A DNA stretch of 48,195 nt from a virus (Duplodnaviria; Heunggongvirae; Uroviricota; Caudoviricetes): the IMG/VR virus record IMGVR_UViG_2519899780_000006; one strand, given 5' to 3'. Of the stretch, positions 24,519 to 29,631 are shown piece after piece (within the stretch, counting starts at the first letter, position 1; each line of letters opens with the position of its first letter). The translations under genes were made by a program, and so were the position numbers. The notes below the pieces were generated by a model. The model did not search any database, had not been told where the DNA came from, and worked only from the letters and a program-made list of their open reading frames with translations.

Positions 24519-24986
24519 TTATTTCAGGCACTGAGTGCGGATATAGTCCTGTGCCCCTTCCAGTTGCTTCTGCATCGTCATCAGCCGCTCTCTGAGGGTG
24601 AAATAATCCCGTGTAACGGTGTCTGCCAGTTGGGGGCCGGTTGCATTATCCACGCGGGCGGTGCCGGTGGCTTCACGCACGGGACCTGGACAGGTGGCGT
24701 TGATCCGCAGGCTGCGGTGACCAGCGGCAACGTCAGCGCGAAGAGTTTCATTTTCAGCTCTCGCATCGGCTAATTCCCTCGAGTATCTGGCATCAAGTGC
24801 AGCAACATCACGCTGGCGCTGCTGCATATCAGTAATGGTTGCATTTGCCAGCTCCAGCTCACTGACTTTTTTATCGCGCTGCTCTTTGTAGGTTATGGCG
24901 TTATCACGGTAATGATTCAGCCCCAGACTAAGCGCACCACAGGCCACCAGCAGGGCAATGATGACCACGCACAGTACGCGGTTCAT
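24519..24986 (-). CDS. Rz: Spanin inner-membrane subunit Rz
   Basis: 155 aa; N-terminal TM helix then NHYRDNAITYKEQRDKK and C-terminal FTLRERLMTMQKQLEGAQDYI, matching lambda Rz as recalled. Confidence 0.9.
   Translation of the reverse strand: MNRVLCVVIIALLVACGALSLGLNHYRDNAITYKEQRDKKVSELELANATITDMQQRQRDVAALDARYSRELADARAENETLRADVAAGHRSLRINATCPGPVREATGTARVDNATGPQLADTVTRDYFTLRERLMTMQKQLEGAQDYIRTQCLK
24581..24751 (-). CDS. Rz1: Spanin outer-membrane lipoprotein Rz1 (embedded in Rz)
   Basis: Embedded +1-frame ORF; start taken at MKLFALTLPLVTAAC (lipobox), followed by Pro-rich CVKPPAPPAWIMQP. Confidence 0.8.
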   Translation of the reverse strand: MKLFALTLPLVTAACGSTPPVQVPCVKPPAPPAWIMQPAPNWQTPLHGIISPSESG

Positions 24987-24987
24987 T

Positions 24988-25086
24988 TCACCACCAGCGT
25001 ATCTGACCGATGAAATAACCGGAGGCCATAATCACAAACACCAGCCAGATAAGAATGAACTTCCAGGTGGATAATTTTTCAGCCAT
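24988..25086 (-). CDS. Candidate 32-aa single-TM micro-protein translationally coupled to Rz
   Basis: MAEKLSTWKFILIWLVFVIMASGYFIGQIRWW; its TGA stop overlaps the Rz start (TGAAATG). Not in the ORF track because it is under 60 aa. Confidence 0.25.
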   Translation of the reverse strand: MAEKLSTWKFILIWLVFVIMASGYFIGQIRWW

Positions 25087-25156
25087 CACTCGAATCTCCC
25101 GAATCAGTTTGCTAAAATCAAACACACTTTCTCCTTTGACTTTTCCAGAGTCAGGA

Positions 25157-25196
25157 AACACAAAACCCCGCTTGCAGCCAACAAACGGGGTTTTTA
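25157..25196. terminator. Bidirectional terminator-like hairpin between R and Rz
   Basis: ccccg...cgggg stem (25166-25190) with a T-run after it on the plus strand and a U-rich tract after it on the minus strand. Confidence 0.4.
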
Positions 25197-25818: not shown

Positions 25819-25860
25819 GGATATTTATCAGGATTTATCGGCAACAGATAACGAGCCAGC

Positions 25861-26667
25861 TTATATACGTCCTTTAAGATAAGTCAGTCCTGGATGAAAC
25901 CAGTAAGCCGGCACTTTTTTAAAGGGCGGATTATCAAAATCACGAAGAAGAGCCTCCCGCACAACTGCATCCTTGTCCGCACCACTGGCCAGCGCTTCAA
26001 TCTCAGCAGCTATCTGCAGATATCCCATGCAACGGCCAATGCGCTTCATCAGCCCCTGCTTTTTATTGTTCTTCAGGTAATCAATGGCAAATTCAATGAG
26101 CGCCTCACTATGCTGGTGCGATGGCGGTGTTAATTTCCCATTTTCTGAGATGGTTATTTTCCCGCCATCTCCGTATACAACAAAGGATGGCCGGTTACAC
26201 TCCCATTCCTGATCTTTATCAGGTGCAGACGCAATAAAATAACGTTTATTTCCTTCCTCTCCGGCACTTTTAACCGTAATGGAGTACTCAGACTGCAGAC
26301 AAGACGCCTCTTTTTCTGACCGCAGTGTTGACGGCGGCATCTTCAGAGAACCAGTAATTCTTCCCGGTAGCTTTCCTTTGTAGGTTATCAACACATCCTG
26401 CGCCTCTAAAATTATGGGGCGCTTTTCCGGCAACGGTTCGTTCCCTTCACATAACCCGGCAGCAACATCCATGAAAAACTGCTTCGCCTGCTTTTTCGCC
26501 TCAGCTTCGTAAAACTCCAGCGTGGCACCTTCAGTACGGTCAAGACTAATCGCCACATCTGGCAACAACAGTGACGGATACCCACCAATTTCCAGTGCCA
26601 CAGTAACAGTAATCTTATCCGGATAATTATTTATCCCTTTAACACCCAGTTCGTATTTTTTCTTCAT
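25861..26667 (-). CDS. Hypothetical 268-aa protein inserted between holin and endolysin
   Basis: Intact ORF with GGGGGAG RBS directly after the S stop; lower GC than flanks; no TM segment or signal peptide; no motif I recognise. Confidence 0.6.
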   Translation of the reverse strand: MKKKYELGVKGINNYPDKITVTVALEIGGYPSLLLPDVAISLDRTEGATLEFYEAEAKKQAKQFFMDVAAGLCEGNEPLPEKRPIILEAQDVLITYKGKLPGRITGSLKMPPSTLRSEKEASCLQSEYSITVKSAGEEGNKRYFIASAPDKDQEWECNRPSFVVYGDGGKITISENGKLTPPSHQHSEALIEFAIDYLKNNKKQGLMKRIGRCMGYLQIAAEIEALASGADKDAVVREALLRDFDNPPFKKVPAYWFHPGLTYLKGRI

Positions 26668-26671
26668 CGCT

Positions 26672-26887
26672 TTACTCCCCCCGCGCCGCCTTACGACGGT
26701 CCTCTCTGATTTTGAAATACAGGTTAGTCAGATATGTCAGCAGCCCAAACAGCAGACTCCCCAGCACGCCTATTGCCGCCCACTGAGACGGGGAAACCCT
26801 GTCCAGCAACTGCAGGAACCAGTAGCCCGTTCCCACCGCTGACGTGGTGTATGACACACCTGTTGTGATTTTTTCCATCTGGTACAT
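26672..26887 (-). CDS. S: Class II holin, phage 21 S21-type pinholin
   Basis: 71 aa from dual-start motif MYQM (ATG 26885-26887); [50 protein letters not shown] matches S21 as recalled. The ORF track extends it upstream to 26965. Confidence 0.85.
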
Positions 26888-26919: not shown

Positions 26920-26952
26920 AATAAAAAAAGCCACCAGTTAAGTACTGATGGC
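26920..26952 (-). terminator. Terminator-like hairpin upstream of S
   Basis: Imperfect 9-bp stem (26930-26952) followed on the minus strand by UUUUUUUAUUG. Confidence 0.35.
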
Positions 26953-27037
26953 TCTGATAACTCATGCAGGCATCTCAGACGACCCACTGACACTACCGGT
27001 GAGTTTAACGATACCTTCCATTTGACTGGCTCACTTT

Positions 27038-28891
27038 TTATGATGATGCCGGTGCATTTATCTCCAGCACCAGACTTTCTATCTCAACGCCATACGCTGC
27101 ATTTTTGGTAATATCCGTCAGCGTCAGCGCATTCAGCCCCAGTGTCAGACTGTCTTTTATGACCTGGAATGCCGGGCCAGCCACTCCATTCAGTTTCGGA
27201 GTAACCGTGGCACTGCCGGCGGTGAACACCAGCTCCAGCGTCTGCCAGTCGTTACTGTAATTCCCGAACTCGCCCAACTTTGTGTTTCCGGCTTTCTTGT
27301 GATGCATCAGATTCAGTTTGCCGTCTGTGGTCTGGGTGAAGAACGACATCAGGAACGGGTTACCAGTCCCGGTCATCGCCACGACGTCAGGTAACGCTAC
27401 ATCGGTATACAGATAAATTCCCAGACCGAACTGGTTGTTGGTCAGTGCGCCTGACAGTCGAAACTTACAGCTCAGTCTGCCACCCCGTGTCAGCAGGGAG
27501 ACTGCGTCATCCACCGGGCGCGTCAGGGACCAGGCTTTATTGCTCTGCTTGGTGATCTTAAATACACCATCTGACAACTGAATTCCGCCATTCTTAATGC
27601 TCCAGCCCTGCGCAGCAGCATCTCCGGCTGTCGGCAACAGGGAGATTGTGCGTACGGATGCATCTTCAGACGGCCCCGATGGCGTGTCGACGCCGGGCGA
27701 GGGTTTGATTTCCGGTGCCTTACCACTGATGAAGGCTGAGGTGCGCCCGGCTGCGTTCAGAATAGCGGTTGCCATACGATCCGGAATAATGCTCCTGCGC
27801 GCCCATGAACTGAAATGTGTCGGGCGGTTTGATGATACCTGGTTTCCATTCGTTCTCGATGCCGCACCGTAATATCCTGATGCCGGAATATCCGGATCTT
27901 CTGCCGGTGCGTTAGTGGCGGTATTGACGCCGTTACCGTCTGTCATGAAGGGCACAAAATAAACGCCCTCACTCTCCCTGTTTTTATACCCTCCGTACAC
28001 GGTGTCGTACTGGGTAGCGTATGTATTTTTCCAGTAATACGTCGTGTCACCACAAATCCACGGTACAACTGCAGCACTGCCGCCATGGCACTGCGCGTTA
28101 AATCCGGAAAGGTCAGTACGGAACTGCTTCAGCATGGCCGTGAACAGGTCCGGTTGCTGTGCGTAGGTGGCAGCGCTCATGTCAAATTCGCCCTGCATCC
28201 AGCACACCGCCAGCAACACATTTTTCGGGTTCTTCTGTAATGCAGCTTTAGTGCGCGCAATCAGGTCCTGATATAGCGGTTTACCCACACCCCAGCGTGC
28301 CGAATCCTGGCTGGCCCCCGCGTCCGCACTGAATGTCCCCTCCGCGCCCTGGGTGAATGCCGAACCACCACGACAGCATGGTACCAGCAGGATCCCAGCG
28401 TTATTCGGGATATACGGGAGCAGTTTTTTGGCAATATGTAAGCCCTGGCCGACACAGCCGTACTGCCCTTTGCTCAGGTCTGCCTTCGGATGATTCAGCG
28501 TACTCATATCCTGCACATCATGCAGACAGTGGTCAGCCGGGATGATGTCGTTATACGTACAACTCTCTCCCCCCGGAGTTACCGTGCTGCGGCGCGCCAG
28601 CTGTTTAATGCGCGGATCCGGAGCATCGTAAGAATCCGGTAACGGAAGCCCTTCACCGTAGGCCATGCCGTTGGACTGTCCGGCAAGCACAACCACGTAG
28701 AACCAGTCCGGCTCAGATGAAGGGCCGACCTGTGGATCTCCTTCAATAGCCACCGCCTGCATCAGTGTGTACGGCGTAATGGCAACCGGTCCGCCATATG
28801 GCTGCCAGCCCTCTTTCAGTTTGTGTGTCAGCTTTTCCGCAAGGTCTGACGGCGACGCCGCCCTGACAACATCATAGTGTTTAAATGCCAT
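27038..28891 (-). CDS. NanS-like sialate O-acetylesterase (SGNH hydrolase)
   Basis: 617 aa; GQSN motif (VLAGQSNGMAYG); occupies the slot between the tRNA cluster and S where Stx phages carry this esterase. Confidence 0.75.
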   Translation of the reverse strand: MAFKHYDVVRAASPSDLAEKLTHKLKEGWQPYGGPVAITPYTLMQAVAIEGDPQVGPSSEPDWFYVVVLAGQSNGMAYGEGLPLPDSYDAPDPRIKQLARRSTVTPGGESCTYNDIIPADHCLHDVQDMSTLNHPKADLSKGQYGCVGQGLHIAKKLLPYIPNNAGILLVPCCRGGSAFTQGAEGTFSADAGASQDSARWGVGKPLYQDLIARTKAALQKNPKNVLLAVCWMQGEFDMSAATYAQQPDLFTAMLKQFRTDLSGFNAQCHGGSAAVVPWICGDTTYYWKNTYATQYDTVYGGYKNRESEGVYFVPFMTDGNGVNTATNAPAEDPDIPASGYYGAASRTNGNQVSSNRPTHFSSWARRSIIPDRMATAILNAAGRTSAFISGKAPEIKPSPGVDTPSGPSEDASVRTISLLPTAGDAAAQGWSIKNGGIQLSDGVFKITKQSNKAWSLTRPVDDAVSLLTRGGRLSCKFRLSGALTNNQFGLGIYLYTDVALPDVVAMTGTGNPFLMSFFTQTTDGKLNLMHHKKAGNTKLGEFGNYSNDWQTLELVFTAGSATVTPKLNGVAGPAFQVIKDSLTLGLNALTLTDITKNAAYGVEIESLVLEINAPASS

Positions 28892-29114: not shown

Positions 29115-29341
29115 GTCCATAAGAAAGCCCCTCCGGAGAGGGGCTGGAGAGTGGCGCTATGTGCCATTGCATGGTGCCGGGTGCCTCCCGGTGAATTCAG
29201 TACCAGCACCTGAATCCGCGATTATCCCATATACCTACTCGCTGATTGCCCCTCCGCACAGGGGGATTCACCATGCCAGTTTCTTTTAACAAACTCCCCG
29301 CAAAACAGACAACTGTCAACCGTCTGAATTGTGAGACATTT

Positions 29342-29381: not shown

Positions 29382-29458
29382 TGGCGCGTTGTACTGGATT
29401 CGAACCAGTGACCGATTGCTTAGAAGGCAATTGCTCTGTCCGGCTGAGCTAACAACGC
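29382..29458 (-). tRNA. argO: tRNA-Arg (anticodon UCU)
   Basis: 77-nt cloverleaf folded by hand: acceptor GCGTTGT/ACAACGC, D stem GCTC/GAGC, anticodon loop CUUCUAA, T loop TTCGAAT, 3' CCA encoded. Confidence 0.85.
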
Positions 29459-29474
29459 AGGATACAGATAATGA

Positions 29475-29548
29475 ACCGCCTTCGGGGACCCGAACTCCGC
29501 GCAACCAGCTTCGAAGGCTGGCGCTCTATCCTGATGAGCTAATGGCGG
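29475..29548 (-). tRNA. argN: tRNA-Arg (anticodon UCG), slightly imperfect
   Basis: About 74 nt; anticodon loop CUUCGAA; T loop TTCGGGT; one mismatch each in acceptor and T stems; no encoded CCA. Ends approximate. Confidence 0.6.
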
Positions 29549-29555
29549 TATGTGA

Positions 29556-29631
29556 TGGTGGCCCTTGCTGGATTTGAACCAGCGACCTGGCGATTATGAG
29601 TCGCTCGCTCTCACCACTGAGCTAAAGGGCC
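29556..29631 (-). tRNA. ileZ: tRNA-Ile2 (anticodon CAU), ileX/ileZ-like
   Basis: 76 nt reading GGCCCTTTAGCTCAGTGGTGAGAGCGAGCGACTCATAATCGC...CCACCA, close to E. coli ileX as recalled. Confidence 0.85.

Follow-up and report, generated by a model that had tools for sequence, protein, structure and literature searches.

The lysis cassette and its resident gene

The whole stretch of viral DNA analysed, hereafter the window (48,195 nt), carries on its minus strand a lysis cassette in which a SASA esterase gene is followed by a holin gene (S), a 268-aa open reading frame (ORF), a lysozyme gene (R) and Rz, in that order (Table 1). The ORF starts with ATG and its 268-codon frame runs without interruption. 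Its GC content is 46.5% (GC3 45.0%), compared with 54.6% (68.1%) for the holin gene, 54.7% (60.7%) for the lysozyme gene and 55.1% (60.5%) for the esterase gene. The highest 19-residue Kyte-Doolittle mean of the product was 1.18, with no membrane segment, and judged by its sequence the protein should be soluble and cytoplasmic. A pattern scan found no promoter-like or terminator-like sites on the coding strand between S, the ORF and R. The ORF is expected to be co-transcribed with the holin and lysozyme genes from the Q-dependent late promoter, and it is probably coupled to the holin gene in translation. The data therefore bear out much of the sequence-only reading: the ORF is intact, well initiated (GGGGAG), lower in GC (46.5% vs about 55%) and without a transmembrane (TM) segment, and it lies in the late operon between a P21-type holin gene and an R21-type lysozyme gene. 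The same reading had called it a moron; in the strict sense, this agrees with the deviant GC content, but no promoter or terminator of its own was found flanking the ORF.

Table 1 Features of the lysis region and of related loci. Positions are those of the window unless a surveyed locus (L number) is named.
Feature	Position	Strand	Remarks
YdfR-family ORF, 268 aa	25861..26667	-	Stop codon included; from the ORF list; identical to GenBank AFS85868.1
DUF1327 N-domain, aa 1-75	26443..26667	-	PF07041; modelled as three beta strands and one long helix, pLDDT 64-89
Linker module, aa 76-118	26314..26442	-	EKRPIILEAQDVLITYKGKLPGRITGSLKMPPSTLRSEK; common to 112-, 296-, 329- and 333-aa relatives; model without confident structure
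Short module, aa 119-153	26209..26313	-	EASCLQSEYSITVKSAGEEGNKRYFIASAPDKDQE; abuts the linker directly; junction at repeated SEK motif
Conserved C-terminal domain, aa 154-268	25864..26208	-	Modelled as beta meander and four helices; no Pfam family
RefSeq pseudogene O3O_RS32345	26332..26667		First 112 codons of the ORF
Shine-Dalgarno GGGGAG	26675..26680	-	Within 3' end of holin gene, 7 nt 5' of ORF ATG
Holin stop codon TAA	26672..26674	-	4 nt ahead of ORF ATG (26667..26665)
P21-type class II holin, 71 aa	26672..26887	-	MYQM dual start; PF04971, E 2.3e-32; K-12 EssQ 79% identical
R21-type lysozyme, 177 aa	25285..25818	-	PF00959; starts 42 nt past ORF stop
Spacer between ORF and lysozyme gene, 42 nt	25819..25860		
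14-bp hairpin	25162..25194	-	Immediately upstream of the small ORF
Small ORF	24988..25161	-	Between R and Rz, ending beside Rz start
Rz/Rz1	24519..24986	-	PF03245 (Rz)
Terminator-like hairpin with T run	26927..26955	-	Between esterase and holin genes, within late operon
nanS-p-like SASA esterase	27038..28891	-	Upstream of holin gene
STnc100 sRNA match and three tRNA genes (Ile, Arg, Arg)	29115..29305 and 29385..29631	-	sRNA match 139 bits
Stx2 phage 86 orf5	L012 2501..3307		268 aa
Slot's resident gene split by IS1203	L015 318..2147		O111:H8 genome
Salmonella homologue locus	L007 2157..3469		In Q-to-holin accessory region
Salmonella homologue locus	L016 3127..3781		In Q-to-holin accessory region
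Salmonella homologue locus	L009 2025..2725		In Q-to-holin accessory region
PHROG 1853 gene	L002 2248..2562	+	
PHROG 1853 gene	L003 2956..3270	-	
PHROG 1853 gene	L012 3317..3631	-	orf6 of Stx2 phage 86
PHROG 1853 gene	L007 4599..4916	-	
PHROG 1853 gene	L016 4807..5124	-	

Several details of the surrounding cassette were also recorded. In the spacer before the lysozyme start (...GATAAATCCTGATAAATATCC-ATG) a Shine-Dalgarno sequence is not evident; R of phage VT2-Sakai, by contrast, uses a GGGGAG within the 3' end of S. Given this difference, insertion of the ORF may alter translation of the endolysin. The terminator-like hairpin ahead of the holin gene is presumably read through by the Q-modified polymerase. 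The small ORF between R and Rz has a strongly hydrophobic C-terminal half (...LSTWKFILIWLVFVIMASGYFIGQIRWW), and at the matching position in locus L002 RefSeq calls a 45-aa hypothetical protein.

The region is 100% identical to Escherichia coli O104:H4 str. 2009EL-2071 (NC_018661.1). The prophage is Stx-phage-like but lacks stx, and its late region has, in this order, Q, a DNA methyltransferase gene and tRNA-Ile/Arg/Arg. The nanS-p-like esterase gene follows the tRNA genes directly with no stx between them, which is the layout of an Stx-phage late region minus the toxin.

The RefSeq annotation stops after the first 112 codons of the ORF and calls them a pseudogene ('YdfR family protein', 'missing C-terminus'). 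Other genomes carry an identical label on ORFs of 268, 296 and 329 aa that are intact. The open frame here and the same label on intact ORFs elsewhere rule out the pseudogene reading; the 'missing C-terminus' looks like a systematic artefact that arises when a mosaic protein is aligned to a reference, and does not reflect a lesion.

A long-form member of the YdfR family

The sequence-only reading had seen no recognisable motif in the protein and had classed the insert as unknown; profile searches corrected both points. Residues 1-100 match Pfam DUF1327 (PF07041, the YdfR family) with 148.3 bits (E 7.5e-44, profile positions 1-88 of 93), the Pfam gathering cut-off for this family being 25 bits. 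The full protein matches PHROG 1085 (E 6.3e-162) in two stretches, the C-terminal one aligning residues 132-268 with profile positions 160-296 of 296; the break between the stretches reflects a coiled coil that is absent from the 268-aa protein. BLASTP aligned the N-domain with K-12 YdfR over 78 aa at 45% identity (E 3e-21). The exact protein was already in GenBank (AFS85868.1, from E. coli O104:H4 2009EL-2071) under the names 'phage protein' or 'YdfR family protein' in NCBI sources, and its cluster at 90% identity contains 584 sequences. All eight of its PHROG matches are annotated 'unknown function'. The family is narrow in taxonomy: a search of 1.84 billion proteins yielded no more than 72 cluster representatives, and every named source was Escherichia, Shigella or Salmonella. 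The protein is thus almost certainly a long-form member of the YdfR / DUF1327 / PHROG 1085 family. Gene, family and position are already catalogued, and the ORF is an ordinary accessory gene, not a novel insertion. Previous descriptions do not cover the C-terminal domain as a separate domain family, nor its occasional pairing with a convergent PHROG 1853 gene, to which we return below.

The domain anatomy became clear from comparison with relatives. Alignment with the 333-aa relative P0042 shows that a coiled-coil and helical stretch of 65 aa, with a SEK motif on either side, is missing from the 268-aa protein; the difference in length is exact (333 - 268 = 65) and the flanking sequence stays in register. 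The 268-aa protein is an in-frame deletion variant without the central coiled coil that is usual in the family. Across the family, the N-domain, the coiled coil and the C-domain have been recombined in at least six architectures, and the C-domain occurs either with a DUF1327 N-terminus or with the coiled coil only, as in proteins of 185 and 213 aa. Stx2 phage 86 orf5 differs from the ORF at a single position in the first 354 nt and at 25 in the last 345 nt, and this uneven divergence points to a recombination breakpoint within the gene. The C-domain is found in Salmonella enterica proteins as well, at 30-45% identity, and the N-termini of these Salmonella relatives show remote homology to DUF1327 (hhalign 90.9%, E 1e-6), which makes the two-domain plan an old one, with K-12 YdfR as the short form.

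In a 15-sequence alignment of the C-domain, residues L198, G211, R212, L217, Q218, A220, P248, K250, W256, P259 and Y263 were invariant. The C-domain is under purifying selection, with pairwise dN/dS of 0.15-0.39; the values for the N part were 0.28-0.81. An AlphaFold model of the full-length protein was poor (mean pLDDT 47), and Foldseek returned no PDB match for it at E <= 0.001. A second model, restricted to aa 119-268, placed aa 158-268 at pLDDT 85-95 (pTM 0.69) and folded the C-domain as a three-stranded meander followed by four helices; no significant or close structural match was found for this model. Neither the protein nor a C-domain profile found a PDB sequence below E 0.17. Pfam scans at E <= 10 of the C-terminal part, the Salmonella relatives and the convergent partner returned noise only, and an NCBIfam scan of the 268-aa protein gave no match. 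As modelled, the fold offers nothing firm on function.

A facultative slot after the holin gene

We examined the junction of holin and endolysin genes in related phages and genomes. The order in the K-12 Qin prophage is essQ - ydfR - rrrQ - rzpQ. VT2-Sakai has no such ORF; its R begins 4 nt past the S stop, which is the same geometry as that of the holin gene and the 268-aa ORF in the window. In H-19B the slot holds a shortened version of about 112-114 aa, and a shortened form of about 112 aa is also present in most Stx1a/Stx2c phages, while orf5 of Stx2 phage 86, in the same slot, has 268 aa and is 95% identical. A relative of the ORF was detected in 103 of the 434 phage records with this holin type. 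At the DNA level, relatives were present in 3147 of 5426 complete E. coli genomes (58%), at a median of two places per genome, and at least 80% of the ORF was covered in 553 of these 3147. The earlier statement that S and R are adjacent in cassettes of this type thus holds for only some phages, such as VT2-Sakai, and not for Qin.

A survey of 80 IMG/VR viral contigs, selected for the C-terminal domain at >=90% identity, showed the same arrangement. In 78 of the 80 loci the gene starts directly after S and stops 37-43 nt ahead of R; the other two loci are cut by contig ends. The commonest form has 185 aa (n = 25), followed by forms of 296 aa (n = 23), 329 aa (n = 10) and 268 aa (n = 7), and the rest are eroded to shorter lengths. 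The 185-aa form consists of coiled coil and C-domain and lacks the N-domain; its presence in 25 of the 80 loci suggests that the C-domain has a function of its own. These results indicate that the slot after the P21-type holin gene and before the lysozyme gene is a regular, facultative home of the family. In an O111:H8 genome, IS1203 splits the resident gene of the slot and the C-domain part alone remains.

Disruption in related prophages, which the sequence-only reading had named as a refutation, was observed, and so was absence of the gene: the gene is absent from VT2-Sakai, reduced to about 112 aa in H-19B and most Stx1a/Stx2c phages, and split by an IS element in L015. The gene is therefore dispensable. 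It could even be a functionless passenger, the recombination scar of a decaying accessory gene kept only by its linkage to the lysis genes. Such a passenger could well be annotated by NCBI over its first 112 codons only, as a pseudogene, and could have lost 65 aa of its closest full-length relative; forms truncated to 112 aa, disrupted by an IS or eroded at the N-terminus are common, and fully functional phages without the gene exist. All 268 codons are, however, open both here and in the independent genome L002, the deletion is in frame, and the resulting form is widespread, as the 584-sequence cluster and the 95% identical phage 86 orf5 attest. The C-domain is conserved as far as Salmonella with dN/dS of 0.15-0.39, and the pseudogene label, also carried by intact ORFs of 268, 296 and 329 aa, reads as an alignment artefact. 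We consider a mere passenger very unlikely.

The arrangement in Salmonella prophages is different: the homologue lies upstream of the holin gene, with other genes in between, and at L009, L016 and L018 the neighbouring holin belongs to another family, PF16080. The Salmonella loci listed in Table 1 are neighboured by a gene for an ArtA-like ADP-ribosyltransferase (Pertussis_S1, a faint match), by a HicAB pair, or by a ParE toxin gene and then an HTH-domain gene.

The C-domain gene of some prophages in E. coli and Salmonella has directly behind it a gene in convergent orientation, about 104 aa long (PHROG 1853, E 8e-50), which is also orf6 of Stx2 phage 86. It is absent from the window, where the 42-nt gap before the lysozyme gene stands in its place, and it was found at full length in at most 95 of the 5426 E. 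coli genomes. Its recurrence suggests that the C-domain gene and the PHROG 1853 gene form a conserved two-gene module.

Candidate functions and comparison with known systems

A literature search found no study of long-form YdfR proteins; the functional work found concerns the K-12 protein (PMC13232886, RNA Biol 2026). In that work, a bacterial two-hybrid assay was positive for K-12 YdfR paired with RNase E 1-597, RNase E 1-598 eluted together with Strep-YdfR, and YdfR residues 1-72 were enough for the interaction. DNase-resistant nucleic acid co-purified with YdfR, although its authors did not exclude a contaminant as the retainer of the RNA. Overproduction caused no growth defect and changed few transcripts, and ydfR was silent, with almost no reads, in uninduced cells. 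A screen cited in the same paper linked ydfR to envelope integrity.

On this basis we tentatively propose that the 268-aa protein is neither a lysis enzyme nor a toxin but works as a binder or adaptor in the late phase of infection. Through its N-domain it would contact the catalytic N-terminal half of RNase E of the host, RNA, or both, as reported for K-12 YdfR; the C-domain would be another binding module, exchangeable independently of the first. RNA turnover, or a different cytoplasmic process of the host, would thereby be tuned late in infection, with lysis itself independent of the protein. In favour of the RNase E contact, the N-domain studied here is 45% identical to the K-12 segment that suffices for the interaction. 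In the Foldseek search of the PDB with the full-length model, the dsRBDs of ADAR1, ADAR2 and Loqs recurred among the top matches to the N-domain, at a non-significant E of 0.2-0.7 over 38-76 columns, and this resemblance points weakly in the direction of RNA binding. Against the proposal may be set that RNase E binding has been reported for the 103-aa K-12 protein only, which has no C-domain and is 45% identical, and the small transcriptome effect of YdfR overproduction weighs against a strong global role. The N-domain is, moreover, missing from 25 of 80 viral loci. Among the mechanisms weighed here the adaptor is the best available, but confidence in it is low.

The position of the gene invites a second explanation, in which the protein is a soluble regulator of lysis timing that binds the charged cytoplasmic tail of the holin, or the cytoplasmic end of the signal anchor of the SAR endolysin, and so delays or sharpens triggering. 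The gene sits immediately 3' of the holin gene with a coupled start, a position it keeps in 78 of 80 loci of the E. coli type. Expression would be confined to the time of the lysis genes, given that no promoter of its own was found and that ydfR is silent in uninduced K-12; the envelope-integrity screen fits as well. Such a role would have precedents among soluble proteins of the antiholin type, of which T4 RIII is one. Another is P1 LydB, a TM-less protein encoded right after the holin gene, which acts as the soluble antiholin of LydA and delays lysis (PMC9025707). Yet the family alignment (A1) showed no homology to LydB (hhalign probability 0.15%), and no match to the lysis category of PHROG was found for the 268-aa protein, whereas the flanking holin and lysozyme do match lysis PHROGs; on this point the sequence-only reading stood, as a known lysis accessory protein was not among the matches. 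VT2-Sakai holins with an identical C-terminal tail, RRKAARGE, work with R directly adjacent, so a holin of this kind can do without the ORF. The Salmonella homologues, upstream of the holin gene, separated from it and beside a PF16080 holin (L009, L016, L018), argue against a holin-specific partner. Control of lysis timing is accordingly a fairly unlikely role.

The sequence-only reading had favoured cargo of the toxin, effector or defence kind, and we weighed the corresponding explanation that the gene serves conflict (defence, anti-defence or superinfection exclusion), its reshuffled architecture recording an arms race. The GC content lower than that of the neighbours, the extreme mosaicism with at least six architectures and the facultative presence are all in keeping with this, as are the Salmonella homologues beside HicAB, ParE or the ArtA-like ADP-ribosyltransferase gene, and the fact that some prophages in each genus pair it with a convergent PHROG 1853 gene. 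The searches gave it no backing: PADLOC-DB 2.0 returned 0 defence families at E <= 1, NCBIfam had no match, and neither a significant fold match nor a toxin-like or enzyme-like fold was seen. Lying within the late operon and lacking its own promoter, the gene should not be expressed in lysogens, the state in which a defence would act; K-12 ydfR indeed gave almost no reads without induction, and the overproduced K-12 protein was non-toxic and harmless to growth (PMC13232886). C-domain dN/dS stayed below 0.4, and positive selection was not seen. A conflict gene is quite unlikely on these grounds.

Apart from the adaptor mechanism, in which the C-domain is a second binding module, another possibility is that this domain is a new protein domain with an undescribed late-phase function, for example cytoplasmic control of lysis timing or anti-defence, perhaps together with the PHROG 1853 gene in some phages. 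The absence of a Pfam family, the confident model without a structural neighbour and the purifying selection all speak for a new domain; we nevertheless give this possibility only a slim chance.

The family is among the commonest unexplained prophage genes of E. coli: 58% of complete genomes have a DNA relative, frequently in multiple copies. It is found in the O104:H4 lineage, in Stx1a- and Stx2c-converting phages and in some of the Stx2-converting ones. Its product would be made with the lysis proteins and, where an Stx-converting phage carries the gene, alongside the toxin as well. Tuning of RNA turnover or of lysis timing by the protein, if it occurs, could alter burst size and toxin release. 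For the window itself the result is mainly a correction: the ORF is an ordinary, catalogued family member with nothing to mark it as a toxin, effector or defence gene.

Among known systems, K-12 YdfR (Qin, b1555) is the closest reference. The two proteins are both soluble and share homologous N-domains (45% identity over 78 aa), and their genes share the order holin (EssQ, 79% identical), ydfR-family gene, lysozyme, Rz. K-12 YdfR, however, has 103 aa and consists of the N-domain and one short helix, whereas the 268-aa protein adds the linker and the conserved 115-aa C-terminal domain; binding of RNase E and RNA is reported for the K-12 protein only (PMC13232886). The long forms of PHROG 1085 (296, 329 and 333 aa, and phage 86 orf5) share the N-domain, the linker, the C-domain and the slot. 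The 333-aa form has a central coiled-coil or helical segment of about 65 aa that both the 268-aa protein and phage 86 orf5 lack, and phage 86 differs in carrying the convergent 104-aa orf6 (PHROG 1853). P1 LydB is alike in position and possible role only, being a TM-less protein whose gene comes directly after that of a holin in a late operon; no homology is detectable (hhalign 0.15%), and the effect of LydB on lysis timing has been shown experimentally. Phage-encoded modulators of RNase E include T4 Srd, T7 gp0.7 and phiKZ Dip, which are early or middle products with demonstrated effects on RNA decay. Should the K-12 result carry over, the 268-aa protein would resemble these modulators, by description, in contacting host RNase E, while differing from them as a product of the late operon whose K-12 relative changed few transcripts.
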